This document shows positions 5,897-64,000 of a stretch of 64,000 bases of DNA, piece by piece (positions within the stretch are counted from its first letter, which is position 1; every line of letters starts with the position of its first letter). Source of the DNA: Phycisphaerae bacterium. GTDB lineage: Bacteria; Planctomycetota; Phycisphaerae; SM23-33. Position numbers and translations under genes: made by a program. The notes beneath the pieces are model-generated. The model was not told where the DNA came from. It saw only the letters and a program-made list of their open reading frames with translations, and did no database searches. The stretch covers positions 2,201 through 66,200 of the forward strand of contig JBAZTO010000016.1 of assembly GCA_041661865.1 (NCBI GenBank). The letters run 5' to 3'.

Positions 5897-5904
5897 TATC
5901 GCCC

Positions 5905-28817: not shown

Positions 28818-28840
28818 TTTCCTGCGGACGCACCGCAGCC

Positions 28841-31333: not shown

Positions 31334-31358
31334 AGCCGGCCTACCAAGTGGGACAGAC

Positions 31359-31432: not shown

Positions 31433-31515
31433 GTCAAGATGGTCAGTATATCCGCCCTTCCATTCCCTGCCAAGCGGCTAGGAGCGGGGTTGCATCACGG
31501 GAGTCGATTGCGTTT

Positions 31516-31746
31516 GTGCCGGCCCACGCCCTGCCACTCATCACCAACCCCGCCGCCGCGGCCTTCCTGCTGGTCAAGGGCTCTGGCCGGGTGATGGCGC
31601 TGGCCTCGGTGCTGGGCGCGGTCAGCGGACTGGGCGGGTTCCTGCTCTCAGCGGCCACCGACCTGCCCAGCGGCGCGGTGATCGTGCTGCTTTCCTCGGC
31701 CTTGGTGGGCCTGGCTGCGTTGGTGGCGCGACTGCGGCGTTCGTAG
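31516..31746 (+). pseudogene. 3' fragment of an ABC-3 family (ZnuB/MntB-like) metal transporter permease
   Basis: LITNPAAAAFLL...ALASVLGAVSGLGGFLLS...DLPSGAVIVLL matches the last TM helices of ABC-3 permeases. The 5' three-quarters is absent because tRNA-Val lies immediately upstream. Confidence 0.65.
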
Positions 31747-31748
31747 CG

Positions 31749-33206
31749 CTACTTCCCGCTATCCACCTGTTCCAGAACTGGTTGGCCGTCCCGCACAGAG
31801 GCACGGTACACCGACCCGCTTGCTCGGGCCTGCACGGCCACTGGCCCAAGTTCCAGAATTGTCACGGTCACCTCACGGTCATCGCCATCAGCCGCCCAGG
31901 CTGTGATCAGCCACTCGGCCCGCTGCCGGTGCTTCCGTGCGACCACGCGGGCCGTGACGTCGCCCGTGGGAAACTCGTACGCAGGCAAGTCATGGGACCA
32001 GCGGTGCCGGTCCGGGCCAGGCAAGAGGTCACCCTGTCGCAGGAATTCCTCGAGGTGAGAGAAGGTTGCATGAACGCGGGCCAGGACCATCATCTGGCCC
32101 AGCCAATGCGGCGGTTCGGCGCCGGTGTCGACATCGCCATCCGAAGGATTCGAGAAATAGCCGGCCACGCCGCCGGTCATACCGGCTGTGTACAAGCACT
32201 TCAGGAAGCCCTTATATCGATTCAGATCGCCCCAAAAACCGCCCTCGCCCCATGCGTTGCGCGGCCAGCCGCCACTGAGCCAGTTATATGAAAGCGGATC
32301 GCCCAGCGGGATCTGCTGCGCGGCGGCGTTAAGCGCCTGGGTGAGCATGTCATTGTGCCCCGTCCAGCCGGAGCAAAGGTGCCGGTAGTAAATACTGCTG
32401 GAGGGCAGATCACTGACCGGCCGCATGAAACGGTATTCCCAGTCCCAATCCTCCCAGCCCTTGTAGCGATAGCGTTGCACACAACCATCGGTGTAGTAGT
32501 AGATGTACAGCAGCCGACCGGGACAGGCCTTGCGGAAAGCGTCGGTGACAATGCCTTCCTGGTGCGCCTTCCCGCGGGAGATGTATTCGTGCCAACTCAT
32601 GTCGCCCTTGGCCTTGACGACCCGCTCATCCTTCTCCCAGATCTTGCCGTCATGGCCGTAGACCTTCAGGGCATACTCCCCATAATTAAGGATAACAGCC
32701 ACGGGCGCTTTGGCCATGACCTTCCGTAGCGGCTCGATGGCTGCCTCCGCCGACTGTTGGAACACCAGGTCCGGCGCCTCGGGACTCCAGACCTTCTTGC
32801 CTTCAGGCCCTACACACCACGTCTCCGGCGGCAGCGTCCTGGTGAAATCCTCGGAGTGGCAGGGCGAATAGGCTACAACGGCGAGGGGGTAGTGTTTGGG
32901 ATCGGAAGCCGCCAAGGCACACAACCGAGAGGCTGCGCTGTTGGGGTCGTCCAACTCCCTGGCCAGTTCATTATTGGCCGTCCCCAGTTCCAGGGCATAG
33001 CCCCAGTGCTTGGACAACTCAATGCGAAACTCAGGCGAGAGCCTGACGGTGCTGCAACGGGCCAGCGGAGGAAGCGTGTGTCCCTGGCGAAAAACCGGCT
33101 GGCTCGCCGCCCGCAGATGCTCCAGAGGCGTGGCCCCGGCTGCAAACGGGGCAAGGGCTGTCGCCAGGACCGTCAGCAGCGATAGGCCGAACATTCGTGG
33201 GGTCAT
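31749..33206 (-). CDS. Secreted hypothetical protein (485 aa, aromatic-rich)
   Basis: Signal peptide (MTPRMFGLSLLTVLATALAPFAAG); globular composition; no family recognised. Confidence 0.7.
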   Translation of the reverse strand: MTPRMFGLSLLTVLATALAPFAAGATPLEHLRAASQPVFRQGHTLPPLARCSTVRLSPEFRIELSKHWGYALELGTANNELARELDDPNSAASRLCALAASDPKHYPLAVVAYSPCHSEDFTRTLPPETWCVGPEGKKVWSPEAPDLVFQQSAEAAIEPLRKVMAKAPVAVILNYGEYALKVYGHDGKIWEKDERVVKAKGDMSWHEYISRGKAHQEGIVTDAFRKACPGRLLYIYYYTDGCVQRYRYKGWEDWDWEYRFMRPVSDLPSSSIYYRHLCSGWTGHNDMLTQALNAAAQQIPLGDPLSYNWLSGGWPRNAWGEGGFWGDLNRYKGFLKCLYTAGMTGGVAGYFSNPSDGDVDTGAEPPHWLGQMMVLARVHATFSHLEEFLRQGDLLPGPDRHRWSHDLPAYEFPTGDVTARVVARKHRQRAEWLITAWAADGDDREVTVTILELGPVAVQARASGSVYRASVRDGQPVLEQVDSGK

Positions 33207-33412
33207 GTGATCCTCTCCTCAATCCGTAGTTCTTGGTGGCCATTCACGAGTCTGGGGCCCATCGTATGGACGGACCACTGGGAATCAAGCATCATCTTCC
33301 ATCCGCCCCGCGCGGCTGGCAAATGATGAAGAGGTCTGCTATCTTGGCCGCCGACACACAAGTGCCACGATGGCCTCAGAAGGATATAGGAATCCTGTTA
33401 GGCGAGAATTCC

Positions 33413-35074
33413 ATGAACATGGAGACACCGGCCGGCAAACTCGACCCCCGAGTCAGGCGCTTTGTGACGCCCAAGCGGATCGTCTGGCAGAACCAGGGCG
33501 CCGACGCCCCGCAGAACGCCACGATGCTGCTGAAGGAAGACGACGGCCAGGCGCTGCTGTCCCTGGATAGACCCTGCGTGCTGGAAAACACGGGCGATGG
33601 CGCGCCGGGCCTGCTGCTGGACTTCGGGGTCGAACTCAACGGCGGCGTGCAGATTGTCACCTGTCGCAGTGGCGACGCAATGCCGGTGACCGTTCGGGTT
33701 CGCTTCGGCGAGTCAGCCAGCGAGGCGATGGGCATCACCAACAATGACCACGCCATGCACGACCAGGTCGTGCGGCTTCCCATCATGGGCAATCACGAAG
33801 TGGGCTCCACGGGCTTCCGCTTCGTCCGCATCGACCTGGTGCAGGAGAACGCACGGATCGAGATCAAGTCCATCCGGGCCGTCTTTCTCTATCGCGAGCT
33901 GGAGTACCATGGCTCCTTCGCGTGCAGCGACGAGCGGCTGAGCCGCATCTGGGCCGTCGGCGCCCGCACCGTCCATCTGTGCATGCAGGATTTTTTGTGG
34001 GACGGCATCAAGCGCGACCGCCTGGTGTGGATCGGCGACATGCATCCCGAGACGGCGGTCATCGCCAGCCTCTTCGGAGCCCACCCGATCGTGCCGGCCA
34101 GCCTGGACATGGTCCGCGACACCACGCCGCTGCCCCAATGGATGAATGGCATCAGTTCCTATTCCATCTGGTGGGTGCTCATCCACGAATACTGGTACGC
34201 CTACCAGGGCGACCTCGACTACCTGCGTCGCCAGCGGACCTACCTGCTGGGCGTGCTCGACCTGCTGCAAAGCCGCATCGGCCCCGATGGCGCCGAGGCC
34301 CTGGACGGCATGCGGTTCCTGGATTGGCCCAGCCAGGCCAACCCGTCCGCCGTGCATGCCGGCCTGCAATCGCTAATGGTGCTGGCGATGGACGCCGGTG
34401 CGCGGCTGTGCGAGGTTCTGGGCGAAAGTGACGCGGCGCTCCGATGCGCCGACGCCGCGGCCAGGCTCCGCCGCCACGTCCCGCAGGCCGGGATGAGCAA
34501 GCAGGCCAACGCGCTGCTGGCGCTGTCAGGCCTGGCCGACGCGGCCGAGACCAACCGCCGCGTCCTGGCCAACGAGCCGCTGTCGAAACTCTCGACCTTC
34601 TACGGCTACTATGTCCTCCAGGCCCGCGCGCGGGCCGGCGACTACGACGGCTGCCTGGAGGTGATCCGCAAGTATTGGGGCGCGATGCTCGATCTGGGGG
34701 CGACGAGTTTCTGGGAGGACTTCAGCCTGGACTGGACCGCCGGGGCCGCGGGCATCGAAGACCTCGTGCCGCCGGGCATGAAGGACATTCACGGCGATTT
34801 CGGCGACTACTGCTACAAGGGCTTCCGCCACAGTCTCTGCCACGGCTGGGCCGCCGGGCCGACGGCCTGGCTCAGCGAGCACGTGCTGGGCGTGCGTCCC
34901 ACCCAACCGGGCTTTGCGGAGGTCGCGATACGGCCGCACCTGGGCGGCCTGGAATGGGCGGAAGGCACGTTCCCCACGCCCCGCGGCCTGATCTGCGTCA
35001 GCCACAAGCGCCGCGGCGACGGGACAATCGACAGCAGGATCGACGCACCGGCCGGGGTGAAGGTCGTTCGGTGA
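33413..35074 (+). CDS. Alpha-L-rhamnosidase (GH78)
   Basis: LLDFGVEL.GG, GFRFVR, FACSDERLSRIW, DGIKRDRLVWIGD, GATSFWE, SLCHGWAAGP, PTPRGLI. Confidence 0.9.
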   Translation: MNMETPAGKLDPRVRRFVTPKRIVWQNQGADAPQNATMLLKEDDGQALLSLDRPCVLENTGDGAPGLLLDFGVELNGGVQIVTCRSGDAMPVTVRVRFGESASEAMGITNNDHAMHDQVVRLPIMGNHEVGSTGFRFVRIDLVQENARIEIKSIRAVFLYRELEYHGSFACSDERLSRIWAVGARTVHLCMQDFLWDGIKRDRLVWIGDMHPETAVIASLFGAHPIVPASLDMVRDTTPLPQWMNGISSYSIWWVLIHEYWYAYQGDLDYLRRQRTYLLGVLDLLQSRIGPDGAEALDGMRFLDWPSQANPSAVHAGLQSLMVLAMDAGARLCEVLGESDAALRCADAAARLRRHVPQAGMSKQANALLALSGLADAAETNRRVLANEPLSKLSTFYGYYVLQARARAGDYDGCLEVIRKYWGAMLDLGATSFWEDFSLDWTAGAAGIEDLVPPGMKDIHGDFGDYCYKGFRHSLCHGWAAGPTAWLSEHVLGVRPTQPGFAEVAIRPHLGGLEWAEGTFPTPRGLICVSHKRRGDGTIDSRIDAPAGVKVVR

Positions 35075-35091
35075 CCGCGGTGAACAAGCTA

Positions 35092-35157
35092 AGCCGCGAA
35101 TGACGCGAACTGTCCAGATACCTACATATTACTAGCCGCGAGCGCAAAGCGAGCGGG
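35092..35157. repeat. GCCGCGAA-type repeat end plus a GCCGCGAGCGCAAAGCGAGCGG palindromic unit
   Basis: AGCCGCGAATGACGCGAAC at 35092-35110 and TAGCCGCGAGCGCAAAGCGAGCGGG just downstream, between convergent genes. Confidence 0.55.
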
Positions 35158-35203
35158 AATTTGGATGGCGAAACTGCCTCGGCGTCCCTTGCCCGGCACT
35201 CGT

Positions 35204-37069
35204 TTACTTCGCACTCCGCACTTCGCACTCCGCACTCTCTTCAATGGCCGGCAGTTCGAGTTCCACCGGGCTCTTGCGTGCGGCGCGGAACCACTTGGGG
35301 ATCGCGTCGATCAGGATGATGGCGGCGCTGGCCATGATGACCGTCGTCAGGACCAGGTTGATGATGCCCTGAAGCTGCTTGCCCGGCAGCGAAAGCTGCG
35401 GCAGGTAGATGCCGCGGATGTTCATCCACCCCGCCGTCAGCGTCGTGACGCCGACGAACGCCATCGGCACGATCGTCACCCACGCGTAGCGTGCTCGGCC
35501 GCGGTTGATGATGAACGATGTTCCCACGGCCAGGGCGATGCAGGCCAGCAGTTGGTTGGCCGTGCCGAACATCGGCCAGATCGTCGAGATGCTGCCGGTG
35601 TAGATGAAGTAGCCCCAGGCCAGCACGACCAGGGCGCTGGCCAGCAGATTGCCCACCAGCCAGTCGGTGCGGGCAAAGGGCCTGTAGACCTTGCCCAAGG
35701 CCTCCTGGAGGATGAAGCGGGCGATTCGCGTGCCGGCGTCGATGGTGGTCAGGATGAACAGGGCCTCGAACATGATGGCGAAGTGGTACCAATAGGACAT
35801 CAGGGACGACAGGCCGGGAATGGACGAAAAGACCTGCGCCATGCCGACAGCCAGCGAGACGGCCCCGCCGGGCCGGCCAGCGATCTTCTCGTTGACCTCC
35901 CGGGCCAGTTCCGGCAGGTTGGAAGTGGCAAATCCCATGGCCTGGAGTTGGGGCAGGAACTTCTGGAATGTCGCGGGGTCAAGGTTGATCTGGAAGTAGT
36001 CCAGCGGAAAGAGGCTGGTGGCGGCCACCAGGGCCAGGATGCTGACCATGCCCTCGGCCAGCATCGAGCCGACGGCGATGACCTTGATGTCGTGGTGCGA
36101 CATGAGCATCTTGGGCGTGGTGCCCGAGCTGACCAGCGAATGGAACCCGCTGATGGCCCCGCAGGCGATGGTGATGAACAGGTAGGGGAACAATGTGCCG
36201 GGGATGATGGCCCCCCCGCCGGCAGTGAAGGTCGTGAAGGCGGGCATCTTGATCGTCGGGGCCACCACGATGATCCCCACGGCCAGCATGGCCACGACGG
36301 CCAGCTTCATGATCGCGCTGATGTAGTCGCGCGGGGCCAGCAGCAGCCAGACCGGCAGCACCGACGCGCAGAAGCCGTAGCCGCACAGCAGAAGCGTCAG
36401 CGTCTTGCGGTCGAAGGTGAACCATCCCGCCAGCGGCGAGCCGGGGATGTAGCGCCCCAGGATCACGGCCAGGACCAGCAGCGTCACGCCGAAAGCGGTG
36501 GCCTCGCCGGTGTGGCCCTTGCGGAACTTGTACATCCACAGGCCCGTGGCCAGGGCGATGGGGATGGTAGCGGCGATGGTGAAGGTGCCCCACGCGCTCT
36601 CGGCCAGGGCGTTAACCACGACGCTGCCCAGGCCCGCCAGCGCCACGATGATGATGATCAGCACCGCCAGCGACGCAGTCGACCCGCTGATCCGGCCGAT
36701 TTCGCGGCGGGCGATCTCGGCCAGGCTCTTGCCGTCGTGCTGCACCGAGGCGGTCAGGATGACCAGGTCATGCACCGCCCCGGCCATCACCGAGCCGATG
36801 AGCATCCACAGGAAGCCGGGGAAGTAGCCGAACTGGGCGGCCAGCACCGGCCCCACCAGCGGCCCAGCCCCCGCGATGGCGGCGAAATGATGCCCAAAGA
36901 GCACCCACTTGCTGGTGGGATAGTAGTTCTGCCCGTCATAGAGGCGATGGGCCGGCGTCTTGCGGGAGTCCTCCCTGACCGCGACCTTGGCCGCCACGAA
37001 GCCGAAATAGAAACGGTAGGCCAGCGCGAAGACCACCAGGGCCGCGATCACCAGAACCATTGCGTTCAT
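35204..37069 (-). CDS. cstA: Carbon starvation protein A family peptide/pyruvate transporter
   Basis: [77 protein letters not shown]. Confidence 0.95.
35206..35236. repeat. Tandem heptamer (ACTTCGC/ACTCCGC)x4 overlapping the cstA 3' end
   Basis: ACTTCGC ACTCCGC ACTTCGC ACTCCGC ACT; supplies the [10 protein letters not shown] tail of CstA. Confidence 0.8.
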
Positions 37070-37219
37070 GTCAAGTCCGCTCCCGCCGCCCAACTGAAAA
37101 AGTCACCTTTGCGGCCGCTCGCCAAGGCAGCGACGGTCCCATTGTAACAAAGGTTGGAGGTTAGCGATAAGAGATTGGAGGAGCGTCTTCAGGGCAAACG
37201 CATCTAATAAGAGACCTTC

Positions 37220-37340
37220 GCCGCGAATTACGCAGATTACGCGAATTCAAAGATATAAAGAACTGACAGTAAGGCCGGGGAAATTGGTAGGTCGTGCAAC
37301 TTGTTGCACGCGGAATGAAGCTTACGAGCTTTTCGCGGCT
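37220..37340. repeat. GCCGCGAA...TTCGCGGC inverted-end element with 9-bp tandem units
   Basis: Left end GCCGCGAATTACGCAGATTACGCGAATTC; right end TTTCGCGGCT; same family as 42729-42840. Confidence 0.6.
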
Positions 37341-37461
37341 GATTTTTTCGCGACCAACTCATTTCACTCTTAGATGCGATGGCCCAGGGAGCGTCTTGCC
37401 CCCGCCGGCCGAGAATGGTATCTTCTCGCTTTCACGCAAGCGGCCACCCGCAGGAGAGAAC

Positions 37462-38292
37462 ATGATTACCCTCAGCGCCTTTGCCGACGAGATCGACCCC
37501 AGCCTCAAGATCCAGATGGACGTCTGCGCGTCTCACGGCATCGGGTGCATCGACGTCCGCGGCATCGACAACACGAACGTCTCGAAGATGACGCTCGACC
37601 AGGTCCGCCGGTACAGGAAGCAGATGGACGACCGCGGCTTCCGCGTCCCGTGCGTCGGCTCGCCGCTGGGCAAGATCAAGATCGGCGAAGACTTCCAGCC
37701 CCACCTGGAGTTGCTCAGGCACTGCTGCGACGTGGCCAAGGCCTTTGGCACTTCGCTGATCCGCATCTTCAGCTTCTATCCGCCCGAGGGCGGCAACATC
37801 GCCGACCACCGCTCGGCCGTGATGGACCAACTGGCCGCCATGGTCAAGCTGGCCGAGAAGTCCGACGTCATCCTGCTGCACGAGAACGAAAAGGCCATCT
37901 ACGGCGCCAAGCCCGCCGGCGTGCTGGACATCTTCGCGACCGTCAAGTCGCCCGCCCTCCAGGGCTGCTACGACCCCGCCAACTACGTCGAGGAAGGCAT
38001 CGCGCCGTACGACCAGGGCTGGAAGGCCGGCCTGGACAAGATTACTCACTACTTCCACATCAAGGACAAGAACCCCACCGAGAACACCTGCGTGCCGGCC
38101 GGGAAAGGCCAGGGGCAAATCGAAGAGGTCTTCCGCGAACTGAAGACCCGCAACTGGAGTGGCATAATGACGTTAGAGCCTCACATGCAGGCCGCCGGCC
38201 AGTTCCAGGGCTTCACCGGCCCCGACCTGTTCGCCCAGGCCGTCGGCGGACTCAAGGGCCTGCTCGACCGCGTGGGCCTGCCGTATCAATGA
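37462..38292 (+). CDS. Sugar phosphate isomerase/epimerase (AP_endonuc_2 TIM barrel)
   Basis: ITLSAFADEI, IRIFSFY, LLHENE, YDPANY, FHIKD, GKGQGQI, MTLEPH; AGGAG SD before ATG 37462. Confidence 0.88.
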   Translation: MITLSAFADEIDPSLKIQMDVCASHGIGCIDVRGIDNTNVSKMTLDQVRRYRKQMDDRGFRVPCVGSPLGKIKIGEDFQPHLELLRHCCDVAKAFGTSLIRIFSFYPPEGGNIADHRSAVMDQLAAMVKLAEKSDVILLHENEKAIYGAKPAGVLDIFATVKSPALQGCYDPANYVEEGIAPYDQGWKAGLDKITHYFHIKDKNPTENTCVPAGKGQGQIEEVFRELKTRNWSGIMTLEPHMQAAGQFQGFTGPDLFAQAVGGLKGLLDRVGLPYQ

Positions 38293-43241: not shown

Positions 43242-45812
<2,571 letters not shown>

Positions 45813-46013
45813 TGCCACTTTTCCTGTTTCCCCCCAGGCCTTTTGCTCTTGCCCCTCTTGCTCGGAACAAATCCGACCAAGACTCGCCTGGTCACAAAAC
45901 CTGGGTCAAGTTACTGTTGATTGCTTAACCGCAGCGGCCAAGTGACGCTTGCGTCACCCGGCCGGTGTGGAAAAAACTATTGCAGAGTGCGCGTGCCACT
46001 CAAGCGGGAATCC

Positions 46014-49296: not shown

Positions 49297-49639
49297 TGAT
49301 GCATTTCCTTTCGCCTTGAAACCATAGTAGGAGGCCCGTTGACAGTCAATCGGTTAATCGGACGACAGATGGAATCAGCTGGCGGGCCAGGCAGGCTGGT
49401 TGCACGTTCTGCCAACTGCGGGCCTCTTTCAAAATGGGTTGTCCTTATTAATTTCCGGGATTTCTTTGACAAATTGCGCAAAAGATATTATATAGGGGTG
49501 GCTTTCCCGATGCCGTTGGTGGCAGTGCGGTTCCGCCAGACTTCGGGAGTTTTACACGAGGGTCCAGCGCTTAGCCCAAGGCACCCATCAAAGGGCCCTT
49601 TGGGAGACCCTCCCAGAGAATCTCTTGGAGGAGAGAACC

Positions 49640-51052
49640 ATGCTTACCGGAATGTTGCGCGCGGGCATGCGTTGTGCCATATGTTTCTCGGCACTACTCA
49701 TCTGGTCGCTTCCTTCGCAGGCCCTGATCGCCTTCCCCGGCGCGGAGGGATTCGGCGCCAATGCCATTGGCGGCCGGTATGGCGACGTCTATCACGTGAC
49801 CTCGCTGGCTGACACCTATGTCCCCGGCACGCTGCGGTATGGCGTTTATTCCGCGCCGTCGGCCGGGAGGACAATCGTCTTCGACATCTCCGGCACCATT
49901 AACATGGCCCAGTACTTGAGCATTGCGCGCGACAAGGTCACCATTGCCGGCCAAACCGCTCCGGGCGACGGGATCACGATGGCCGGGTATGGCGTGTACA
50001 TTGATGCCAACGACGTCATTCTCCGCGACATGCGGTTCCGCCTGGGCACGGCCAACAACCAGGAGGCCGACACCCTGGGCATCAACAACGGCTCGAACAT
50101 CATTGTGGATCACTGTTCGGCCTCCTGGAGTGTGGATGAGACGCTTTCGGTGGCCGGCACGGCCCGCAACGTCACTGTGCAGTGGACGACGATTTCCGAA
50201 AGCCTCGACCACTCCATTCACAGTAAAGGCGCACACGGCTACGGGTCGCTGATCAGGCCGGATGTCGACGCCAGCTATACCTTCCACCACAACCTTTACG
50301 CCCACAACCGAAGCCGCAATCCCAGGCCCGGCACCTATAACGGCAAGCTCCTTCAGTTCGATTTTCGCAACAACGTGGTCTACGATTGGGGCCAGGCCGG
50401 CTACGGAGCCTACGACGGCGAGTACGTGAACATGAATTACGTCGGCAACTACCTGGTCGCGGGGCAGTCGACGAAGCCCGAAAACTTGGGCGACGCCTTC
50501 GCAGGCGGCAGCGTGGACACGCACATCTACCAATCCGGCAACATGATTGACAGCGACCGCGACGGCAATCACGACGGTGTGGACACCGGCTGGGGCATGA
50601 TCACCGACACTTACACGAAGGTCTTGTCTCCGTACAACTATGCGTCCGTGGCCACAGACACAGCCGACGTGGCTTACACGAGGGTGCTGGGCGATGTCGG
50701 GGCCCGGCCCTGGGCACGCGACCCGGTGGACCTTCGCATCATCAACGACGTCAAGAACGAGACTGGGCACGTCATCGACGCCACCTCGGAGGTCGGAGGC
50801 TTCCCGACACTGGCTTCGATCCTCCGGCCAACGGACTTTGATACCGACCTCGACGGCATGCCCAATTTCTGGGAGACGCTCTACGGCACCAACCCCAGCC
50901 TCGCCGATAACAGCGGCGATAGAGACGGCGACGGCTACACGAATCTTGAAGCCTACCTCGCCTACGCAGCCGTGCCCGAACCGGTCACCATGAGCCTGCT
51001 GATCCTGGGTGGCACGATGCTGCTGAGAAGGCGAAACTCTCGGCAGATTTGA
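49640..51052 (+). CDS. Pectate lyase (PL1-like) with PEP-CTERM sorting signal
   Basis: AFPGAEGFG..A.GGR.G.VYHVTSL.D..PGTLR, IAGQTAPGDGI, DHCSASWSVDE, HGYG, HNRSRNPR, DTDLDGMP..WE, C-terminal VPEP-hydrophobic-RRR. Confidence 0.9.
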   Translation: MLTGMLRAGMRCAICFSALLIWSLPSQALIAFPGAEGFGANAIGGRYGDVYHVTSLADTYVPGTLRYGVYSAPSAGRTIVFDISGTINMAQYLSIARDKVTIAGQTAPGDGITMAGYGVYIDANDVILRDMRFRLGTANNQEADTLGINNGSNIIVDHCSASWSVDETLSVAGTARNVTVQWTTISESLDHSIHSKGAHGYGSLIRPDVDASYTFHHNLYAHNRSRNPRPGTYNGKLLQFDFRNNVVYDWGQAGYGAYDGEYVNMNYVGNYLVAGQSTKPENLGDAFAGGSVDTHIYQSGNMIDSDRDGNHDGVDTGWGMITDTYTKVLSPYNYASVATDTADVAYTRVLGDVGARPWARDPVDLRIINDVKNETGHVIDATSEVGGFPTLASILRPTDFDTDLDGMPNFWETLYGTNPSLADNSGDRDGDGYTNLEAYLAYAAVPEPVTMSLLILGGTMLLRRRNSRQI

Positions 51053-55774: not shown

Positions 55775-56752
55775 TTACGGGCCAGTCATGATGAGCACTT
55801 CAACGCGCCCTTCGCGCCGCAGCTTGGGATCGCCGAAAGCGCCGACCTTGATCCTGTCGGACGGCACCCCGTTCTGGATCAGCGAGTCACGCACCGCATC
55901 GACGCGCTGTTCGTTCAGATCCCGGCGAGAACCCGTGTAGCCGTCGATCCCGAGCGTCAGCGACGGGTTGCGCTTCACGTAGTCCGCCATCTCCGCCGTC
56001 ATGCTCCTCTGGGAATCAAGGATGTCGGCGCTGCCGCTGTTGAACCAGAACTCCCTGTAAGAAACCCAGCACGGGACGATGCCCGCAGGGCCTTGCGGAC
56101 CTTTTTCACCCGCAGGGCCTGTGGAGCCTGGAGGGCCTGCCGGTCCCGGCGGGCCGGCTACGACCGCACCAACCGGACCTTGGTTGCCGACCTCACCCGC
56201 AGGGCCTGCAGGGCCGGCAAAACCTGTCGGACCGGCGGGGCCCGCAGGGCCGACCAGCGTTGGCCCCCTATCGCCCACCTCACCGTACGGGCCTGTGGCG
56301 CCTTTAGGTCCGGGCGGACCCACTGGGCCTGTCGGGGCCATTGCCGTTGGGCCCGACTCGCCAAGCGGTCCGGCAGCACCTTCTGGGCCTCGCTGCCCCA
56401 TCGGGCCCACTGGACCCATCGGACCTACTGCAATTTCGCCTGCCGGGCCTCTGGCTCCCGTGGGGCCCTGGTCACCCATCGGACCGGGAGGGCCTTGCGG
56501 TCCAGGAGCACCGACCATCGTGGCCCCCACCGGGCCGCCAGGTCCTGCTGCACCTTGACCGCCCATGGGACCCGCGGGCCCCTGTGGGCCTCGCGCACCC
56601 ACAAAGTCAATCATGCAAACTTCCGGCCGCAGTGAAGGCTCCACCTTGGCACTTGGCTTGCAAATGGGACAGTTGGCACATCCGGCCAGGAACACGGCCG
56701 TCAGGGCCAGCGCCCCTCCTCTCATAATCGCTCTTCGTTCCATCATGTTCAT
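55775..56752 (-). CDS. Lipoprotein: Cys-rich N-terminus - segmented collagen (Gly-X-Y) rod - OmpA-like C-terminal domain
   Basis: Lipobox FLAGC; about 55 Gly-X-Y triplets in six blocks; C-terminal [10 protein letters not shown]...LGIDGYT...[19 protein letters not shown]...RVEV. Confidence 0.88.
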
Positions 56753-57184
56753 CCTACCTTTCTGGCCTGCCGACGGGCCACCCGCAACGTTTGATAACCC
56801 AATTCGAACGCAGTTTTGGGGCCGGCCGATCCTGAAGCGTGCCAGCCTTACGCCTCGGAACCAGCCGTGCTCCACGCGTAAGTCTACGCGGGTGCGAGTG
56901 CGCTTCCGTCGAGCAGCATCCCTGATTCTGTCGTCGGGGCCTTGCTATCCCGCATGCAGGGAAATTCCCGTGGATAATCAAGATTTGCCCCTAAAGGCCA
57001 CGCCGCACACTGCCGGCTGCCCACCTCCATTCCCGCGCCGCGTGTTCGATGTTCCCCCTCGGCGGAGAATATGCCGCTCCCATCTCATCCCTCAAGGAAG
57101 CATGGCCCGGACGGGCTGAAGACATGGAGAATTACACATGAGCTATTTGGGCTCCCCGCGGCCTCCGTGGAGGCCTGCCCCAAA

Positions 57185-57769: not shown

Positions 57770-58987
57770 ATGTTTGGAATGCGAATTGTCGTTGTGACGT
57801 TCTGCGTCACGGCAATCCTGTCGGCCGTGGCCTACGCGGCCGGTGCGCAGGGAACCCAGCCCACTTCCGTCCCGGCTGAAACCCACTTACGAATCGTCTA
57901 TTTCTACAGCCCCACATGCCTCAAATGCGAGGAACTCAAGAAGGTTCTCGACCGCGCGGAAAAACGATGGGGCGACGGGATCTCCATTGAGCGTCACAAC
58001 ATCCAGGAAGCCAAGGGCCTGGACCTGATGCTCGAGTACGAAGACCGGTATGGATCGGAAGAGGCGGCGGCCCCGAAGATATTCCTGGGCAGGCAATACC
58101 TCGCGGGGGCGGACAACATCATGCGGCGCCTCGACGATGTGATCGCCAAGGAACTTCCAGCGGCGCCCACGACCCAGAGCATGCCGGCCAGCACCCCCGC
58201 CGCGACCACTTCGGCCGCAACGACCCGCACGGATTCGGCGGATGAGCAACCCTTGTTCATCAAGCGGTTCGGCTCCTTCCGCGTGGCGGCCCTGATTTCC
58301 GCCGGGCTGATAGACGGGGTCAACCCCTGCGCGTTCACGACGGTCGTGTTTCTGCTCTCCACCCTCACCTACCTGCACAAGAGCCGTCGCGATGTGGCCA
58401 TCGTGGGGACCAGTTTCACCGTTGCCGTCTTTGTGACCTATCTGCTCCTGGGCCTTGGCATGTTCGGCGCCATCAAGGTGTTCGCCGTCTCGCACGGCGT
58501 CTCGGCGGCTCTGACCTACGTCATCGGGGCCTTGACGCTCGCATTGGCGGTCTGGAGCTTCATCGACGGCGTGCGATTCGTCCGGACGGGCAAGGTGCCG
58601 GCCGGTGCCCTGGGCATGCCCCAGTGGGCCAAGAAAGGCGTCCACAAGGTGATCCGGACGGGACTCAAGACCTCCAGCCTGGCCATCGGCTCCTTTGGCA
58701 TGGGATGCCTGGTGTCCCTGTTGGAGTCCGTTTGCACGGGGCAGGTCTACCTGCCCACCATCATGCTCGTCGTCCGAACGCCCGGCCTGAGCCTTCACGC
58801 CTTCGGCTACCTGATCCTGTACAACGTGATGTTCATCCTGCCTCTGGTCGCGATCCTCATTGCCAGCTACTGGTTCACCGGCTCCGACCGCCTAGGCCGG
58901 TTGATGCAACGTCACCTCGGGGCGGCCAAGTTTCTCCTGGCTGCATTGTTCCTGGGGCTGGGCCTGCTGCTGCTGGCAACGGTGTGA
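57770..58987 (+). CDS. Thioredoxin/glutaredoxin-like (CxxC) domain fused to a CcdA/DsbD-like transmembrane domain
   Basis: Signal peptide; YFYSPTCLKC; AGLIDGVNPCAF and LLESVCTGQVY (the two TM Cys); YLILYN.MF.LPL. Confidence 0.85.
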   Translation: MFGMRIVVVTFCVTAILSAVAYAAGAQGTQPTSVPAETHLRIVYFYSPTCLKCEELKKVLDRAEKRWGDGISIERHNIQEAKGLDLMLEYEDRYGSEEAAAPKIFLGRQYLAGADNIMRRLDDVIAKELPAAPTTQSMPASTPAATTSAATTRTDSADEQPLFIKRFGSFRVAALISAGLIDGVNPCAFTTVVFLLSTLTYLHKSRRDVAIVGTSFTVAVFVTYLLLGLGMFGAIKVFAVSHGVSAALTYVIGALTLALAVWSFIDGVRFVRTGKVPAGALGMPQWAKKGVHKVIRTGLKTSSLAIGSFGMGCLVSLLESVCTGQVYLPTIMLVVRTPGLSLHAFGYLILYNVMFILPLVAILIASYWFTGSDRLGRLMQRHLGAAKFLLAALFLGLGLLLLATV

Positions 58988-59007
58988 GTTAGAAACTACC
59001 TCCGAAC

Positions 59008-59058
59008 GTAGCATGGGCATCTTGCCCATGAGTATCACGGGCGAGACGCCCGTGCTAC
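59008..59058. repeat. REP-like doublet (GTAGCA..GGG family)
   Basis: GTAGCATGGGCATCTTGCCCATG-AGTAT-CACGGGCGAGACGCCCGTGCTAC, between convergent genes; related to 16442-16466. Confidence 0.85.
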
Positions 59059-59076
59059 GGGTTTTGAGATAGTCCC

Positions 59077-59670
59077 TCAGTCCTTCACGCGGCACTTGAC
59101 CCACAGGGAGATTTGTTTCCGCCGCGGATCATCGGTGACAAGAATCAGCCTGGACACGTAGGGCACGGCCACGTTCGGGGCAACAAATTTAACTTTCACG
59201 CGGGTGGCGCCTGTCGCCGCCAGTTCCTTGGGCGGGTTGACGGCTGTGATGCACCCGCAATCGCCGCGAATCTTGCTGATTCGTACCGTACGGCCTGAGG
59301 GGTTTTCGATCGTGAACGTGACGGTGTGCTTGCTGTCCTTGCGGATCTCCCCGAGATTGCATGTGGCTTCCGTCCCGAAAAACGACGGCATGTGCTTGGC
59401 GGTTCCCTCCACCGGCGCCGGAGCTGTCGCCGTCGTCGGGCCGGAGGACGCCACGGGTTGGGTTGCCTGCACTTCACTGCCGGCCGGGCGCGACTCGGCC
59501 GTCGCGACAGGGCGCACCGACGTCGCCGACGCCACATCGCAGCCCATGAGGATGCTGAGAGTCTCCCACAGCAGGAGTACTGCCGTCAGGCTCAGCAGGC
59601 CCAAGGCGAGTTTACAGCCCGTAACGGTCTGATAGACGCACTTGGCGCCCGCCGGGTCGAACCTTCTCAT
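59077..59670 (-). CDS. DUF1573 (Ig-like) domain exported protein
   Basis: N-terminal TM helix, Pro/Thr linker, NLGEI....H.VTFTIEN.S...V.I..I.GDCGCIT. Confidence 0.78.
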   Translation of the reverse strand: MRRFDPAGAKCVYQTVTGCKLALGLLSLTAVLLLWETLSILMGCDVASATSVRPVATAESRPAGSEVQATQPVASSGPTTATAPAPVEGTAKHMPSFFGTEATCNLGEIRKDSKHTVTFTIENPSGRTVRISKIRGDCGCITAVNPPKELAATGATRVKVKFVAPNVAVPYVSRLILVTDDPRRKQISLWVKCRVKD

Positions 59671-60068
59671 AACGACCTCTTTTCCTTGGCGCCTGCCGGG
59701 CCGACCGGCCCTCGCGACGCCCCCATCCGTCCGGCCATTTTATCGCGAGATACCACAAACCTTCAAGGAACAGGATATCCCAGCAAGTCGGCATGAATTG
59801 AGCATGACCGAAATCGCTTCCCGGGCGGAAGCCGCAGCCAACCCGCGTGGGCATTGGCATCGGCCACGTAATCGGGGCTCGCGGCGAGAATCTGTCGCCA
59901 ACAGGCGCCACACCGTCATGCCGCGGATAGCACAAATATAATGTGTGCTTTGCGGCCTCGCCCCCAGCAGGGAAAGGCGTAAAGGCATAAGTGCCGATAA
60001 TTGTTTTGTGGGCAAGGATCTGTTTGTTACAGTAATTGGTGATTACTGTTTGCGAAGGAGAGAACGCG

Positions 60069-60746
60069 ATGATATCAGCCGCAATCCACAGCACCGGTTC
60101 GATCACCATCCCCCGTGCGGTTTCCGCTTGTGCCTGCTTCCTGGCTTGCACAGCCCTGGCCATTGGGAGCGCCGGCTGCGCCGAGGGCAACATCAGGCCC
60201 GTCAGCGAAACGGCGGACTTTCACAGGCAAATCGCCCGGTCCGACCGGCCGGTCCTGGTGGACTTCTACAAGGACAACTGCCCGACGTGCGTCATTCAAG
60301 AAGCTGAGCTGGATCAATTGCAGCAGGAGTATGGCGGCCGCGTGACGTTCATCAAGTTCAAGATCCGCGAAGCCACCATGGAGAGCGCCAGCCCGGAAGT
60401 CATGGACGAGTACAACCTGTTCTGGGTGCCGACGGTGATCCTCTTCGTCAAGGGTCAGGAAAAGCAACGCTGGGTTTTCAATCACCTCGCCGCGGAGTTT
60501 CGAGACCCCCTGGACCTGGCCCTGGCCAAGACGTCGCCGCAGGTCGCCGCGGGCAGGCCGGGGCAAGTGCCGGCCGGGAATACCACCCCCCCTGCCCCTA
60601 CAGGGTCAGCCCAGGTGCTGGCCAAGAAACCCGTACCCCCCGCTGCTCCTCCAGCAGCCGGCACGTGTACGGGGCAGGGATGCCCTCTTTACAGACCAGG
60701 CCCATCGGCCAATCTGGGAGCATTGGACCCAAGGAGTCCTAAATGA
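60069..60746 (+). CDS. Thioredoxin-fold lipoprotein (CPTC)
   Basis: SAGC lipobox-like; RPVLVDFYKDNCPTC; VPTVILFVKGQE; Pro-rich tail. Confidence 0.85.
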   Translation: MISAAIHSTGSITIPRAVSACACFLACTALAIGSAGCAEGNIRPVSETADFHRQIARSDRPVLVDFYKDNCPTCVIQEAELDQLQQEYGGRVTFIKFKIREATMESASPEVMDEYNLFWVPTVILFVKGQEKQRWVFNHLAAEFRDPLDLALAKTSPQVAAGRPGQVPAGNTTPPAPTGSAQVLAKKPVPPAAPPAAGTCTGQGCPLYRPGPSANLGALDPRSPK

Positions 60747-61294
60747 CAGACTTGTCTTCCGTGCTCGCCCGCACATTTCTGTCCGATGATCTCAAAGCGG
60801 CTAGGCAGCCTGGAAGCCGGGCAAAGCCTGGCTCCAGCCGCGTCGGGACAGTGGCCTGCGTCCTGCTGCTGGCCCTGGCCGGAGGATGTGGCGGCGGTGG
60901 GAAGGCCGTAGTGCTCAAGAACGCCGACGAGGTCAATGCCGCCATCTACGGCGACCCGCCTTCCCTCGTGATGTTTTACAAGCAGGGCTGCGCGACGTGC
61001 GTGGCGCTGGAGCCCACGTTCGACAAGTTGGCCAAGGAGTATAAAGGCCGGGCACTAGTCTCCAAGTACATGATCTACACGTTCACGTTCCACGTGAATT
61101 CGTGGGAACTCAAGAAGAAGTACGACATTGCCTTCGTTCCCACGGTCTTACTATTCGTGGATGGGCAAGAGAAGAAACGCTGGGTCGTGGACTACAAGAT
61201 CAACGACTATCGCAAGGCGCTAGACGAGGTTGTAGCCCCCACGGAGACCCAACCCTCCTCACAACTATCCTCAAGCCCGGCTGGAAAGCCCTGA
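60743..61294 (+). CDS. Thioredoxin-fold lipoprotein (CATC)
   Basis: LAGGC lipobox-like; LVMFYKQGCATCVALEP.F.KLA; VPTVLLFVDGQE; overlaps the previous gene by 4 nt. Confidence 0.85.
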   Translation: MTDLSSVLARTFLSDDLKAARQPGSRAKPGSSRVGTVACVLLLALAGGCGGGGKAVVLKNADEVNAAIYGDPPSLVMFYKQGCATCVALEPTFDKLAKEYKGRALVSKYMIYTFTFHVNSWELKKKYDIAFVPTVLLFVDGQEKKRWVVDYKINDYRKALDEVVAPTETQPSSQLSSSPAGKP

Positions 61295-61522
61295 GGCCCA
61301 ACGGCAAGGTCTTCTCCTGAAAGCCCGGACGCCGCGACGGCCCGTGGCGGTTGTTGGTCCCAGGATCAAACAGCCTCAAATTCTGTTGCGTTCCACATCT
61401 CTCAGTGCTTAAATTGCCGCGTACATTTCAGCGAGGCCCGGGGATGAAAAAGGCATCGTCGAAAGTTCGGCGAGTCAGTGTCCTGAGCCCCGGCCGGGTG
61501 TCATGACAAGGAGATTGCCGGT

Positions 61523-63070
61523 ATGAAGCTATCTAACCTGGGCCTCTGCAATATCGCCACCTGCCGCGCAAGGGTGCCCGCCGAGTTCTTTTTCCGCGAC
61601 AATCAGGTCTGGATTCGGAAGATTTGCCCCACCTGCGGCCCCAGCGAGTCGCTGGTCAGTTCAGACGCGGGCGTCTGGCAGGCCAAGCGGGACCTGTGGC
61701 AGTACGTTCCCACGGACCCTGAAGTCTGCACCCTCAACTGCGACCGGTGCGGCAAAGACCACAAGCCCAACATGGTCTTCCTGGACGTCACCAACCACTG
61801 CAACATGAACTGCCCCATCTGCATCGCCACGATTCGCGGCATGGGCTTCGACTTCAACCCGCCGCTGTCGTATTTCGAGAAGATCTTCGCTGAACTGGGC
61901 CGGATGCAGCCCCAGCCGGTCGTCCAGCTCTTCGGCGGGGAGCCCACCATGCGAGAGGATCTGCTGGAGATCATCGCCATCGCCAAGAAGAATGGCCTCA
62001 GGCCGCACGTCGTCACCAACGGCCTTCGCCTGGCCGACGAGGAGTACTGCCGCAAGCTGTGCGAGGCCAAGGTTCCCATGCGATTCGCCTTTGACGGGCG
62101 CAGCGCGGACATCTATGAGCGCCTGCGCAACAACCGCGGCGCCTACGACAAGAAGATGAAGGCCCTGGAGAACCTCAAGAAGCACAGCCGGCGGAGGCAC
62201 GCCATCATTGCCTGCGCGGCCTGGGGCATCAACGACCATCTTATCGGGGACATGTTCCAATATTGCCATGACAACCGGGATCTGATCTCCGATGTCGGCA
62301 TCATCCCGCTGACGGAAAACTGGGAGCCCGGCACCTTTGACGCCGCCAAGACCACCACCATGGAAGATGTCGAGAAGATGGTCCAGCAGGCCATCCCCGG
62401 CGGAGAGGTGGAGTTTATCCCGGCAGGATTGGCTTACGCCCTGAAGAAGCCGCGGTCGTTCTTCCGCGCCAACCCGCGATCCGAGGTGCTCCTGCTGGCC
62501 GGCGTGCACCCCAACTGCGAGGCGATGACCTTGCTGATCTCCGACGGCAAGGCCTACCGCGGCATCAACCACTATCTGACCAAGCCCTTCAGCCAGGTGG
62601 CCGTGGAGTGCGCAACCCTGTGCAGGAAGATCGAGCCCAAACTCGACCGCCTGGATCCCACAAAATACTGGCAACGTCTGCGCGGGCGGATGTTGCTCAT
62701 CCGGACCCTCGGGCCGTGGGTGCTGCGTACCATCCGGTTCGGGCGATTGTGGGGCAATCCGATCACGGCCGTGGTCAAGCCCCTCGTCGCCCGGCTGCGC
62801 CGCAAGTATGGCGAGCATTCCGCCAACCGCCTCCCACGGCGAATCCTCCGCGTCGGCATGCTGCCCTTCGAGGAACAACATTCGGTCGATGCCGCCCGCA
62901 TGGAGAACTGCAAGGCCGTCTTTGCCTACGAAGACGTCGATGACGGCAAGGTCAAGTACATCCCGGCCTGTCTGTGGTATCCCTACCGCAACGCGTTCCT
63001 GGAGAAACTGTCGACAAAGTACGGTGTGGCCGGCAAGAAGTCCGCGGCGCCGTCGCCCGCCTCCGTCTGA
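61523..63070 (+). CDS. Radical SAM enzyme of the MJ0619/Tes (tetraether lipid synthase)/Mss family
   Basis: N-terminal C-x4-C...K.CPTCG metal site; C-x3-C-x2-C-x3-H; DVTNHCNMNCPIC (SAM cluster); GGEPT, TNG, FDG; HPNC; D..R...C...G...IPAC C-terminal motif. Confidence 0.8.
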   Translation: MKLSNLGLCNIATCRARVPAEFFFRDNQVWIRKICPTCGPSESLVSSDAGVWQAKRDLWQYVPTDPEVCTLNCDRCGKDHKPNMVFLDVTNHCNMNCPICIATIRGMGFDFNPPLSYFEKIFAELGRMQPQPVVQLFGGEPTMREDLLEIIAIAKKNGLRPHVVTNGLRLADEEYCRKLCEAKVPMRFAFDGRSADIYERLRNNRGAYDKKMKALENLKKHSRRRHAIIACAAWGINDHLIGDMFQYCHDNRDLISDVGIIPLTENWEPGTFDAAKTTTMEDVEKMVQQAIPGGEVEFIPAGLAYALKKPRSFFRANPRSEVLLLAGVHPNCEAMTLLISDGKAYRGINHYLTKPFSQVAVECATLCRKIEPKLDRLDPTKYWQRLRGRMLLIRTLGPWVLRTIRFGRLWGNPITAVVKPLVARLRRKYGEHSANRLPRRILRVGMLPFEEQHSVDAARMENCKAVFAYEDVDDGKVKYIPACLWYPYRNAFLEKLSTKYGVAGKKSAAPSPASV

Positions 63071-63103
63071 GATCGCCAATCACCCAAAGGAGGTTATGGC
63101 ATA

Positions 63104-63727
63104 ATGTTCTCGCCCAGAGCATTCATCGGCCTTGTATTGCTTAGCGCCCTGTTGCCGGCCTGCGGACAAGGCGAGTCATCACACAAGAGCACAGCGGTCA
63201 TCGCTGAGCAGTTGTTCGCAGCCAAATCGCCCATGCTCCAGAAGCCAGCGCCCGATTTCACGCTGATGGACCCGAACAACAAGCCGGTTACTTTGAGCGC
63301 CCTGCGCGGCAAGTGGGTGGTACTCTACTTCTATCCGTCGGAGGACACGCCGCCCTGCGTCTGCGACGCCACGGAGTTCACCAAGACGCTTGCCGATCTG
63401 CGTGGCCTACAGGCCGAGGTCTACGGTATCAATCCGGATACGCCCCAGGCCCATCAAGCCTTGGTAACAGCCTACGCCCTCGAACTCAGACTACTGAGCG
63501 ATCCGGACCACCAGGTGGCCCAGCAGTATGGCGCATGGCTACAGACAACCTTGGACGGCGGTGCTTACGGCCGGGTCATCCGCGGCACCGTGATCGTCGA
63601 TCCACAAGGGATGGTCCTTCAGCATTGGCCGGAGGTAGTGCCGCTGGGACACGCTCAGCGCGTCAAAACTAAACTGGCTGAACTTCAGGCCCAATCGCCC
63701 CGGCTACGGGATGAGAACGAAAAGTGA
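63104..63727 (+). CDS. Peroxiredoxin (BCP/PrxQ-like), predicted lipoprotein
   Basis: LLPAC lipobox; APDFTL; GKWVVLYFYPSEDTPPC (PxxxTxxC); VYGINPD; LLSD; R.TVIVD..G. Confidence 0.88.
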   Translation: MFSPRAFIGLVLLSALLPACGQGESSHKSTAVIAEQLFAAKSPMLQKPAPDFTLMDPNNKPVTLSALRGKWVVLYFYPSEDTPPCVCDATEFTKTLADLRGLQAEVYGINPDTPQAHQALVTAYALELRLLSDPDHQVAQQYGAWLQTTLDGGAYGRVIRGTVIVDPQGMVLQHWPEVVPLGHAQRVKTKLAELQAQSPRLRDENEK

Positions 63728-63977
63728 TCTCCACCTGGCCTGACGCATAACGGACAAGCCCGGCCGCAAGACCTCAATCCGCTAAACACGCCCCGACAGC
63801 CCGCTCGCGCGGACAGGTCCAGAGCCCATCGGCGTGTGCGGCCACGATAGCCGCTGAGGAGGCGGAGGCGGTCGGTTTTCATCTGCAACCACAGGTCGCT
63901 CGGTGCCCCCGCCGCCGGCGGCGACAACCGAGTCCGGCCGGTCAAAGCAGTCTAAGTTTGGATAATGACATTGGGCC

Positions 63978-64000
63978 GGGTGGCGCAGGCTTTCCAGCCT
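63978..64000. repeat. Start of another GGTGGC(A/G)CAGGCTTTCCAGCCT REP-like unit (truncated by the window end)
   Basis: GGGTGGCGCAGGCTTTCCAGCCT matches 16367-16390 and 20617-20640. Confidence 0.7.

Follow-up and report, generated by a model that had tools for sequence, protein, structure and literature searches.

A Planctomycetota-centred sister clade of tetraether synthase, represented by a radical SAM protein of Phycisphaerae

The archaeal tetraether synthase Tes (GDGT-MAS; GDGT, glycerol dialkyl glycerol tetraether) belongs to the radical S-adenosylmethionine (SAM) enzymes and couples lipid tails tail to tail. The structure of one member, MJ0619, showed that the labile ligand of its C-terminal cluster is Met439, fully conserved in 1000 archaeal homologues, that Tyr459, strictly conserved in archaeal homologues, adjoins the substrate terminus, that amphipathic helices form a second lipid pocket, and that bacterial phospholipids are bound without headgroup specificity (PMC9433317). 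"Tes homologues" have been reported in Phycisphaerae metagenome-assembled genomes (MAGs) from blastp matches with E<1e-30 and at least 30% identity (PMC11868695), and in a 2026 review no bacterial relative of Tes is on record as functionally tested (PMC13459092). Here we describe a 515-residue radical SAM protein encoded in a 64,000-nucleotide stretch of a Phycisphaerae genome assembly (GCA_041661865.1, contig JBAZTO010000016.1; hereafter the window), which has the complete predicted architecture of Tes and falls, along with its close relatives, outside the Tes clade. We give a probability of about 0.5 to the reading that it is a cytoplasmic Tes-like enzyme with four metal sites, from a Planctomycetota-centred sister clade of Tes, that acts probably on a lipid chain.

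Architecture and metal sites of the window protein

The gene and the features recognizable in its product are as follows:

61523..63070 (+): Tes-like radical SAM gene, 515 aa, ATG start, assigned to the Planctomycetota-centred sister clade of tetraether synthase
61547..61636 (+): predicted N-terminal zinc-ribbon/rubredoxin-like site, Cys4 (C9, C14, C35, C38); Pfam PF23545, E 2.5e-9
61727..61762 (+): N-terminal auxiliary [4Fe-4S] motif C69-x3-C73-x2-C76-x3-H80, aligned with C73/C77/C80 and His83 of MJ0619 (PMC9433317)
61799..61822 (+): radical SAM cluster motif C93-x3-C97-x2-C100; Pfam PF04055; invariant across the alignments
62507..62521 (+): H329-P-N-C332-E333, with the first Cys of the putative C-terminal [4Fe-4S] site (MJ0619 C338), from the alignments
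62519..62860 (+): helical segment, residues 333-446, counterpart of the Tes lipid-pocket helices; AlphaFold2 helices 356-375, 382-403 and 413-428
62855..62875 (+): G-M-L447-P448-F-E-E in place of C-M439-H440-F-M-D of Tes, from the alignments; role of Met439 from PMC9433317
62897..62971 (+): R459...C463-K-A-V-F467...I-P-A-C483, with Cys 2 and 3 of the putative C-terminal cluster (MJ0619 C455, C470), from the alignments

The antisense open reading frame (ORF) at 61661..63079 (-), of 472 aa, is a shadow ORF typical of high-GC DNA. In Pfam searches the protein is matched by Zn_ribbon_HMPTM (PF23545; 37 bits, gathering cutoff 27) and by Radical_SAM (PF04055; E 6.7e-17, 62.6 bits, gathering cutoff 29.5). 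The NCBIfam Tes model NF045702 aligns to it nearly end to end (E 1.9e-47, residues 13-497 on positions 8-483 of 486), and the top solved structure by sequence is 7TOL, that of MJ0619 (E 2e-35). An AlphaFold2 model computed from a 46-sequence alignment (mean pLDDT 86.2, pTM 0.87) retrieved the same structure with Foldseek against the Protein Data Bank (PDB), with an E-value of 2.2e-27, TM-scores of 0.73 on the query and 0.76 on the target, and 543 aligned columns. The only full-length PDB matches were 7TOL and 7TOM, the next ones, SuiB, SkfB, DesII and MoaA, covering the radical SAM core only at a TM-score of about 0.33. The predicted model contains a rubredoxin-like domain, an N-cluster domain, the radical SAM core and a C-cluster domain, and, since nothing else matches it over its full length, this four-domain architecture is, among solved structures, common to the window protein and Tes only. 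By the Pfam, NCBIfam, 7TOL sequence and structure E-values the match in motifs and architecture is far beyond chance. The first-pass annotation, made from the sequence without searches, had proposed the full MJ0619/Tes plan along with a list of its motifs: each of the motifs lies in 61523-63070 (+) where it had been placed, and the plan is borne out by the end-to-end hidden Markov model (HMM) alignment and by the predicted fold.

The metal sites differ from those of MJ0619 in detail. The rubredoxin-like motif reads C9-x4-C14...C35-P-T-C38-G, and its counterpart in MJ0619 is C9-x2-C12...C33-P-E-H36-G; the Cys3His arrangement (C9, C12, C33, H36) was not found in the window protein, and the Cys4 site occurs in 113 of the 114 close homologues that fit the pattern. 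The first knuckle (61547-61564, residues 9-14) is a C-x4-C (CNIATC) where the family norm is C-x2-C, a variant seen in six of 120 close homologues, including the nearest relative, P0002 (CNNAAC). In the N-terminal cluster motif His80 stands one residue later than His83 of MJ0619 in the alignment. The cysteines of the radical SAM and N-terminal clusters and three C-terminal cysteines (C332, C463 and C483, equivalent to C338, C455 and C470 of MJ0619) are invariant in both the window clade and the Tes clade, the last lying in the C-terminal IPxC motif I480-P-A-C483. This conservation suggests that C332, C463 and C483 are the ligands of the C-terminal cluster, for which the structure paper names only Met439.

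Separation from tetraether synthase

The end-to-end match to the Tes model is a distant one. The window protein scores 162 bits on NF045702, whose equivalog cutoff is 450. An exhaustive phmmer search of 1.84 billion representatives recovered first its own family and full-length relatives, at 34-64% identity and 240-763 bits, after which the score falls to about 136 bits and the alignments extend chiefly over the N-terminal two-thirds. On the Tes model, ten relatives from above this break score 146-201 bits; among ten from below it, seven score 430-610 bits, being true Tes or near to it, and three are TrsS-like or other proteins. Pairwise identity gives a similar picture: the window protein shares 26% identity with MJ0619 (pairwise E 5e-38) and 22-26% with the Tes representatives, while MJ0619 shares 41-49% with the same representatives. 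In a neighbour-joining tree of 77 full-length superfamily representatives, MJ0619 included, the window clade of 23 taxa parts at the deepest split with 100/100 bootstrap support, and Tes, the TrsS-like proteins and other subfamilies all lie opposite; the close subfamily, at 63% identity or more, is likewise recovered at 100/100.

For comparison at the level of residues, residues 4-493 of MJ0619 were rebuilt from 7TOL as aligned by HMMER with a true Tes representative, and the resulting numbering reproduces all residues named in the structure paper (PMC9433317). The position of the rubredoxin-like ligand His36 is His in all Tes representatives and Cys, equivalent to Cys38, in all clade members. 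That of the labile Met439 is Met in all 8 Tes representatives and Leu or Ile in all 19 clade sequences compared; in the window protein HMMER and two MAFFT alignments agree in pairing it with Leu447 and not with the neighbouring Met446, hence the labile Met ligand appears to have been lost. His440 of Tes is Pro in the clade (P448 in the window protein), and Tyr459 is mostly Tyr in Tes and mostly Phe in the clade (Phe467). The residue after the first C-cluster Cys, Gly in Tes, is an invariant Glu in the clade (Glu333), within an HPNCE motif shared by 119 of 120 close homologues. Among the residues that contact SAM, Gln268 of the SAM lid becomes hydrophobic in the clade (I/M/L/V), Arg275 of the lid becomes variable, and Phe106, Phe or Tyr in Tes, is mostly Ile, Leu or Val. 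The MJ0619 region CMHFMD...RCCIHY thus reads 445-GMLPFEE-451...461-ENCKAVF-467 in the window protein. The MJ0619 variants M439A and Y459F/L stay active (PMC9433317; PMC13459092), so these substitutions mark another lineage and alone do not exclude a Tes-type chemistry.

Taken together, the score on the curated model, the tree and the clade-wide residue changes place the window protein outside Tes and mark it as a member of a separate sister clade, not as a Tes orthologue. The first-pass annotation had noted altered C-terminal motifs, which the alignment confirms, and had left a choice between a route to membrane-spanning lipids and a sister clade; 162 against 450 bits, the loss of Tes residues throughout the clade and the phylogenetic placement outside Tes (100/100, neighbour-joining) all favour the latter. 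Members of the clade are easily recognized by the Cys4 site, HPNCE and [LI]P[FY]E[ED], together with the lack of Met439 and Tyr459.

The distance from Tes also bears on earlier surveys, which required at least 30% identity (PMC11868695, PMC13159169) or E<1e-50 (Zeng et al. PMC8941075; PMC13159169). We considered whether the published Tes homologues of Phycisphaerae are proteins of the window type and rejected this, given 26% identity to MJ0619 against the 30% required. Hence, the published Phycisphaerae matches are probably other proteins and the present clade lies outside the survey counts; MJ0619 stood proxy here for the M. aeolicus query of the survey, which makes this exclusion probable and not certain.

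A helical segment matching the second lipid pocket of Tes is retained without loss of length, with about 40-46% hydrophobic residues. It contains a clade-specific insert, seen in the alignment between C332 and L447, and in the window protein it is strongly cationic, with a net charge of +17. Net charge ranges from +15 to +22 in the close family as against -3 to +9 in Tes, and the hydrophobic fraction is 0.36-0.46 in the close family and 0.39-0.49 in Tes. In these properties the segment resembles a membrane-interface element.

Distribution and gene neighbourhoods

More than 120 clusters (at 90% identity) share 65-79% identity among close relatives; all are metagenomic and those that carry a label are Planctomycetota or Phycisphaerae. 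Judged by this spread, the clade is under strong purifying selection. A scan of one genome per GTDB species yielded 394 relatives, of which the best 80, at 44-79% identity, are all from MAGs, nearly all of them labelled Planctomycetota and a few "Anaerolineales". The close relatives being without exception from Phycisphaerae or Planctomycetota MAGs by this reckoning, the planctomycete host named in the first-pass annotation stands. Three loci labelled "uncultured Anaerolineales bacterium" (L003, L019 and L038; numbers with the prefix L denote related loci) carry a planctomycete-type gene at 59-79% identity, and their labels are probably a product of mis-binning or of a taxonomic label error in the MAG catalogue. 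Divergent clade members are known from metagenomes only, one with the label Candidatus Omnitrophota. Habitats of the carriers are anoxic or low in oxygen, among them groundwater, fens, sediments and digesters. The window's own locus is present in DNA runs of groundwater metagenomes; these were the only runs with the locus, and no RNA run was found to give transcript evidence for an operon of the two thioredoxin genes, the radical SAM gene and the peroxiredoxin gene.

In the window the radical SAM gene lies among genes for exported thiol-redox proteins:

60069..60746 (+): thioredoxin-like CxxC lipoprotein gene, with a 4-nt overlap into the gene that follows
60743..61294 (+): another thioredoxin-like CxxC lipoprotein gene, the immediate upstream neighbour of the radical SAM gene; Pfam Thioredoxin E 7.8e-10; gene call; lipobox and PVLV[DE]FYKxCxxC
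63104..63727 (+): AhpC/TSA (PrxQ/BCP-like) peroxiredoxin gene, lipoprotein-type N-terminus; Pfam AhpC-TSA E 1.3e-33; NCBIfam PrxQ-like

All three proteins have lipoprotein-type N-termini. The gap from the second thioredoxin gene to the radical SAM gene is 229 nt and that from the radical SAM gene to the peroxiredoxin gene 33 nt. About 2.5 kb upstream of the radical SAM gene, 57770-58987 (+) encodes a polytopic membrane protein whose N-terminal segment is thioredoxin-like and contains a CxxC; an identification as DsbD/CcdA was considered, and neither Pfam nor NCBIfam confirmed it. By analogy, the envelope thiol-redox cluster formed by these genes (57770-58987, 60069-61294 and 63104-63727, all +) resembles the ScsB-TlpA-PprX peroxide-reduction pathway (PMC3322552). 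A GC-rich hairpin with a weak T tail is found at 61330-61349 (+) in the 229-nt gap, 36 nt past the stop of the second thioredoxin gene. A scan for promoters and terminators gave sites no more frequent than in shuffled sequence, and an Rfam search of 59000-64000 gave nothing credible, the best match, speF (E 0.62), lying inside a coding sequence.

The thiol-redox linkage recurs in part. Within the close subfamily, at 63% identity or more, 18 of 35 unique loci have a gene for a thioredoxin-like CxxC lipoprotein as the immediate same-strand neighbour, mostly upstream and in two loci directly downstream, with unconserved outer flanks; a peroxiredoxin-related gene lies near the radical SAM gene in nine loci. 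Close loci that lack the thioredoxin partner have varied neighbours, including TetR- or Rrf2-like regulators (recognized by eye from N-terminal sequences) and other lipoproteins. In the subfamily at 45-51% identity two other linkages are seen. A lipoprotein family of about 180-200 aa, in one or two copies, adjoins the radical SAM gene in 12 of about 23 informative loci, and a SufS-like cysteine desulfurase gene stands directly beside it on the same strand, mostly downstream, in 11 of about 23. The desulfurase is matched by TIGR01979 (293 bits, cutoff 475) and by Pfam Aminotran_5 (E 1.5e-84) and has SGHK and RNGCFCAQP motifs. The lipoprotein family, absent from the window, is uncharacterized, has no Pfam match and resembles the LIC13411 adhesin model only weakly, at the C-terminus; the same family (about 190 aa) precedes the radical SAM gene of a member at 40% identity on a 418-kb contig (E 5e-58). 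Examples of these genes, and of clustered paralogues, are:

L074:6786-7334 and 7406-7942; L084:7384-7959: lipoprotein genes of the 180-200-aa family; also in L069, L072, L073, L078-L081, L062, L064, L066 and L068
L074:9545-11005; L069:9534-11009: SufS-like desulfurase genes; also in nine further loci
L056:2169-7102: three clade paralogues in tandem; L069:66-13111: four within 13 kb; clustered paralogues also in L058, L059, L070, L077, L078 and L081

Two or more ORFs of the family occur within the fetched stretch at ten loci, one of which, L060, is an artefact of overlapping ORFs. Divergent representatives in the tree best match the second or third paralogue copies. This clustering suggests that some Planctomycetota have a multi-enzyme pathway. 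In L056 the gene directly downstream of the tandem trio, at 7281-9995 (+), encodes an LRR-Roc-COR-TIR protein of 904 aa, which looks like a ROCO/TIR signalling or defence protein. L078, at 3424-7739 and 9973-10830, also contains a distinct radical SAM/SPASM gene, a glycosyltransferase gene (family 2), a second clade paralogue with its lipoprotein on the opposite strand and a TauE/SafE sulfite-exporter-family gene.

Pfam searches of about 40 window ORFs assign the remainder of the window to polysaccharide degradation, type II secretion or pilus, signalling and housekeeping functions. A dense group of carbohydrate-active genes at 23073-38292 and 49625-51052 includes GH4, fucosidase-like, rhamnosidase-like, beta-helix/NosD-like and pectate lyase-like members and a DUF6785/DUF6784 membrane protein; CstA is encoded as well. 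This set is consistent with a polysaccharide-degrading Phycisphaerae heterotroph. A membrane H+-pyrophosphatase is encoded at 43242-45818 (-). An unusual envelope protein at 55775-56875 (-) combines collagen triple-helix repeats (Pfam Collagen, E 5e-23) with a C-terminal OmpA domain, and its repeats give rise to several long shadow ORFs on the + strand.

Possible chemistry and relation to known systems

Positions that in MJ0619 lie near the substrate terminus or SAM stay hydrophobic in the clade or become more so (Y459 to F, M439 to L, Q268 to I/M/L/V, F106 to I/L/V). With the retained pocket helices, and given that the only characterized enzyme of this fold acts on lipid tails, this suggests that the substrate is hydrophobic and probably a lipid tail. 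Reductive cleavage of SAM would generate the 5'-deoxyadenosyl radical, which would take a hydrogen from a hydrophobic chain at an unactivated sp3 carbon; the chain would most probably be an acyl or alkyl tail of a membrane lipid. It would lie between the barrel and the helical segment of about residues 333-446, which is cationic and amphipathic and would dock against the membrane's inner face. The substrate radical would be parked on the nearby C-terminal cluster, as in Tes; the fourth site of this cluster would be permanently open, Leu447 standing in for the labile Met439, and flanked by the clade-invariant Glu333. A second turnover would finish the reaction, the most likely outcome being that bacterial lipid tails are joined tail to tail by C-C coupling or modified in a closely related way. 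Apart from C-C coupling the outcome could be C-S bond formation or desaturation, given that the cluster site would be open, that the Glu is invariant and that a sister subfamily is linked to a desulfurase. The enzyme being cytoplasmic and the thioredoxin-like and peroxiredoxin neighbours exported, the latter more likely reflect co-regulation with envelope redox defence than direct partnership.

Several observations weigh against the action of a Tes-like enzyme on lipid chains. The Gln268 and Arg275 contacts of the SAM lid and the Met-His pair, invariant in the sampled Tes representatives, are replaced throughout the clade, and thus the chemistry may differ. No lipid-synthesis gene was found by Pfam among the approximately 40 window ORFs or as a conserved neighbour, and what recurs in the neighbourhoods is not lipid metabolism but lipoproteins, along with functions related to thiols, sulfur and Fe-S. 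No isolate or cultured carrier was found among the best 80 of the 394 genome matches, and hence no lipidome can be matched to the gene. The tree itself was built by neighbour-joining on a representative sample and not by maximum likelihood.

The alternative that survives best, if still a doubtful one, is that the same scaffold carries out another chemistry on a hydrophobic substrate, the open-site C-cluster serving as sulfur donor or electron sink for C-S bond formation (thiolation or a thioether) or for desaturation. The clade-wide Leu or Ile in place of the labile Met would leave a three-Cys cluster beside the invariant Glu of HPNCE and the acidic LPFEE motif. Tes itself forms an intermediate with a bond from carbon to a cluster sulfur and releases a sulfur-containing lipid under limiting SAM (PMC13459092; PMC9433317), and a divergent homologue of another lipid-modifying radical SAM enzyme has switched from methylase to desaturase (bioRxiv 10.1101/2025.10.20.683597). 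The desulfurase that adjoins 11 of about 23 loci of the 45-51% subfamily would fit such a chemistry; however, it is absent from the window and from the window's own subfamily, and it may equally serve ordinary cluster assembly or repair for a three-cluster enzyme. No sulfur-containing lipid is tied to these organisms in the retrieved literature.

Somewhat less probable still is a strict bacterial synthase of tetraethers or membrane-spanning lipids that couples tail to tail exactly as Tes does, with Phycisphaerae as a source of lipids of the branched GDGT (brGDGT) type. The complete Tes architecture and predicted fold, the anoxic or low-oxygen habitats of the carriers and the retention of all cluster ligands save a Met that is dispensable (M439A being active; PMC9433317) would fit such a synthase, and Planctomycetota have been proposed as producers of brGDGTs and overly branched GDGTs (OB-GDGTs) from metagenomic gene surveys (PMC11868695). 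Against it stand the failure to reach the Tes equivalog score (162 against 450 bits), the position outside the Tes clade, a similarity to MJ0619 (26%, E 5e-38) below the published survey cut-offs and the absence of linked ether-lipid or other lipid genes; moreover, the making of such lipids is on record for no bacterial relative of Tes (PMC13459092).

The recurrent lipoprotein neighbours raise the question of whether the enzyme is a protein maturase that modifies the adjacent lipoprotein before its export, the thioredoxin-like one in the window's subfamily and the ~190-aa one in others. In three subfamilies such a gene is the immediate same-strand neighbour, with variation in the other neighbours, and radical SAM enzymes with several clusters, such as the SPASM maturases, often modify the products of neighbouring genes. 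Yet the full-length match of the fold is to Tes, with the peptide maturases SuiB and SkfB matched over the core only (TM-score about 0.33), the partners are folded exported proteins of 160-200 aa and not short precursor peptides, the partner family differs by subfamily, and such a partner is missing from about half of the loci; we consider a maturase very unlikely.

A role in tetrahydromethanopterin biosynthesis, as the pterin C-methylase (HMPTM, "class D radical SAM methylase"), would accord with the label "7,8-dihydro-6-hydroxymethylpterin dimethyltransferase" that JGI gives to several close homologues, with the Pfam domain name, derived from that pterin annotation, and with the tetrahydromethanopterin-linked C1 genes that some Planctomycetes carry. 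It can be dismissed for practical purposes, since the label descends from a superseded annotation of MJ0619, whose pterin assignment was irreproducible and inconsistent with the structure (PMC9433317), no tetrahydromethanopterin genes lie in the neighbourhoods examined, and no cultured Planctomycetes are among the best 80 of the 394 genome matches.

Returning to a Tes-like enzyme that acts on lipid chains, the following extension is speculative and we hold it to be improbable as a whole: that the clade, with 2-4 clustered paralogues in some genomes, builds undescribed cross-linked lipids, be they membrane-spanning, macrocyclic or sulfur-bridged, in anaerobic planctomycetes through a Tes-like open-cluster mechanism. 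If true, such lipids could explain part of the orphan signals of branched or "overly branched" GDGT type in anoxic waters and sediments. Which bacteria and enzymes produce the branched tetraethers, widely used as palaeoclimate proxies, is still unresolved, and the present clade, lying below the survey similarity cut-offs, has probably been neither counted as Tes nor examined; the literature on ladderane or Phycisphaerae lipids contained nothing on it. If its members modify lipids, they offer a concrete gene for testing membrane-spanning or cross-linked lipids in anaerobic Planctomycetota; if not, the Tes scaffold supports other chemistry and metagenomic counts of "Tes homologues" need resolution at the level of clades.

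Among known systems, the bacterial Mss enzymes (Tmari_0825 and the T. ethanolicus enzyme) are similar in being radical SAM enzymes with a proposed, analogous tail-to-tail C-C coupling of bacterial fatty acyl chains, and they act under anoxic conditions only. The first-pass annotation had taken Mss for a bacterial homologue of Tes; this did not hold, as the published Tes searches of Sahonero-Canavesi et al. set Mss apart, yielding no homologue of Tes in the organisms that bear Mss (PMC13159169). Hence, a "Tes/Mss family" merges two unrelated radical SAM families, a protein of the Tes superfamily is not expected to be related to Mss, and the likeness of Mss to the present clade is a functional analogy at most. 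Gms, the synthase of glycerol monoalkyl glycerol tetraethers (GMGTs), is likewise a radical SAM enzyme with several clusters that acts on lipid tails, by a proposed cluster-assisted C(sp3)-C(sp3) coupling, but it has SPASM-type auxiliary clusters and no rubredoxin domain (PMC13459092) and was not recovered as a relative in the searches made. TrsS, a radical SAM (seleno)protein (NF045646) of the MJ0619-like superfamily, shares the zinc ribbon, the N-terminal cluster and the radical SAM core. However, the window protein reaches 128.5 bits on its model against a cutoff of 490, over residues 13-265 only; its C-terminal half does not match, and the tree has TrsS-like representatives on the same side as Tes. 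TrsS is itself uncharacterized, its mention in the literature being a listing in a table (PMC13188914).

The closest system remains Tes itself (MJ0619, PDB 7TOL/7TOM; NF045702), with the same plan of four domains and four metal sites and C-cluster cysteines at equivalent positions. It differs in that the helical segment of the window protein is longer and much more cationic, and in that Tes is archaeal whereas the window clade is bacterial (Planctomycetota and Omnitrophota) and seen in metagenomes only. On these comparisons, what is new is an uncharacterized and well-conserved sister clade of tetraether synthase within the known Tes superfamily.

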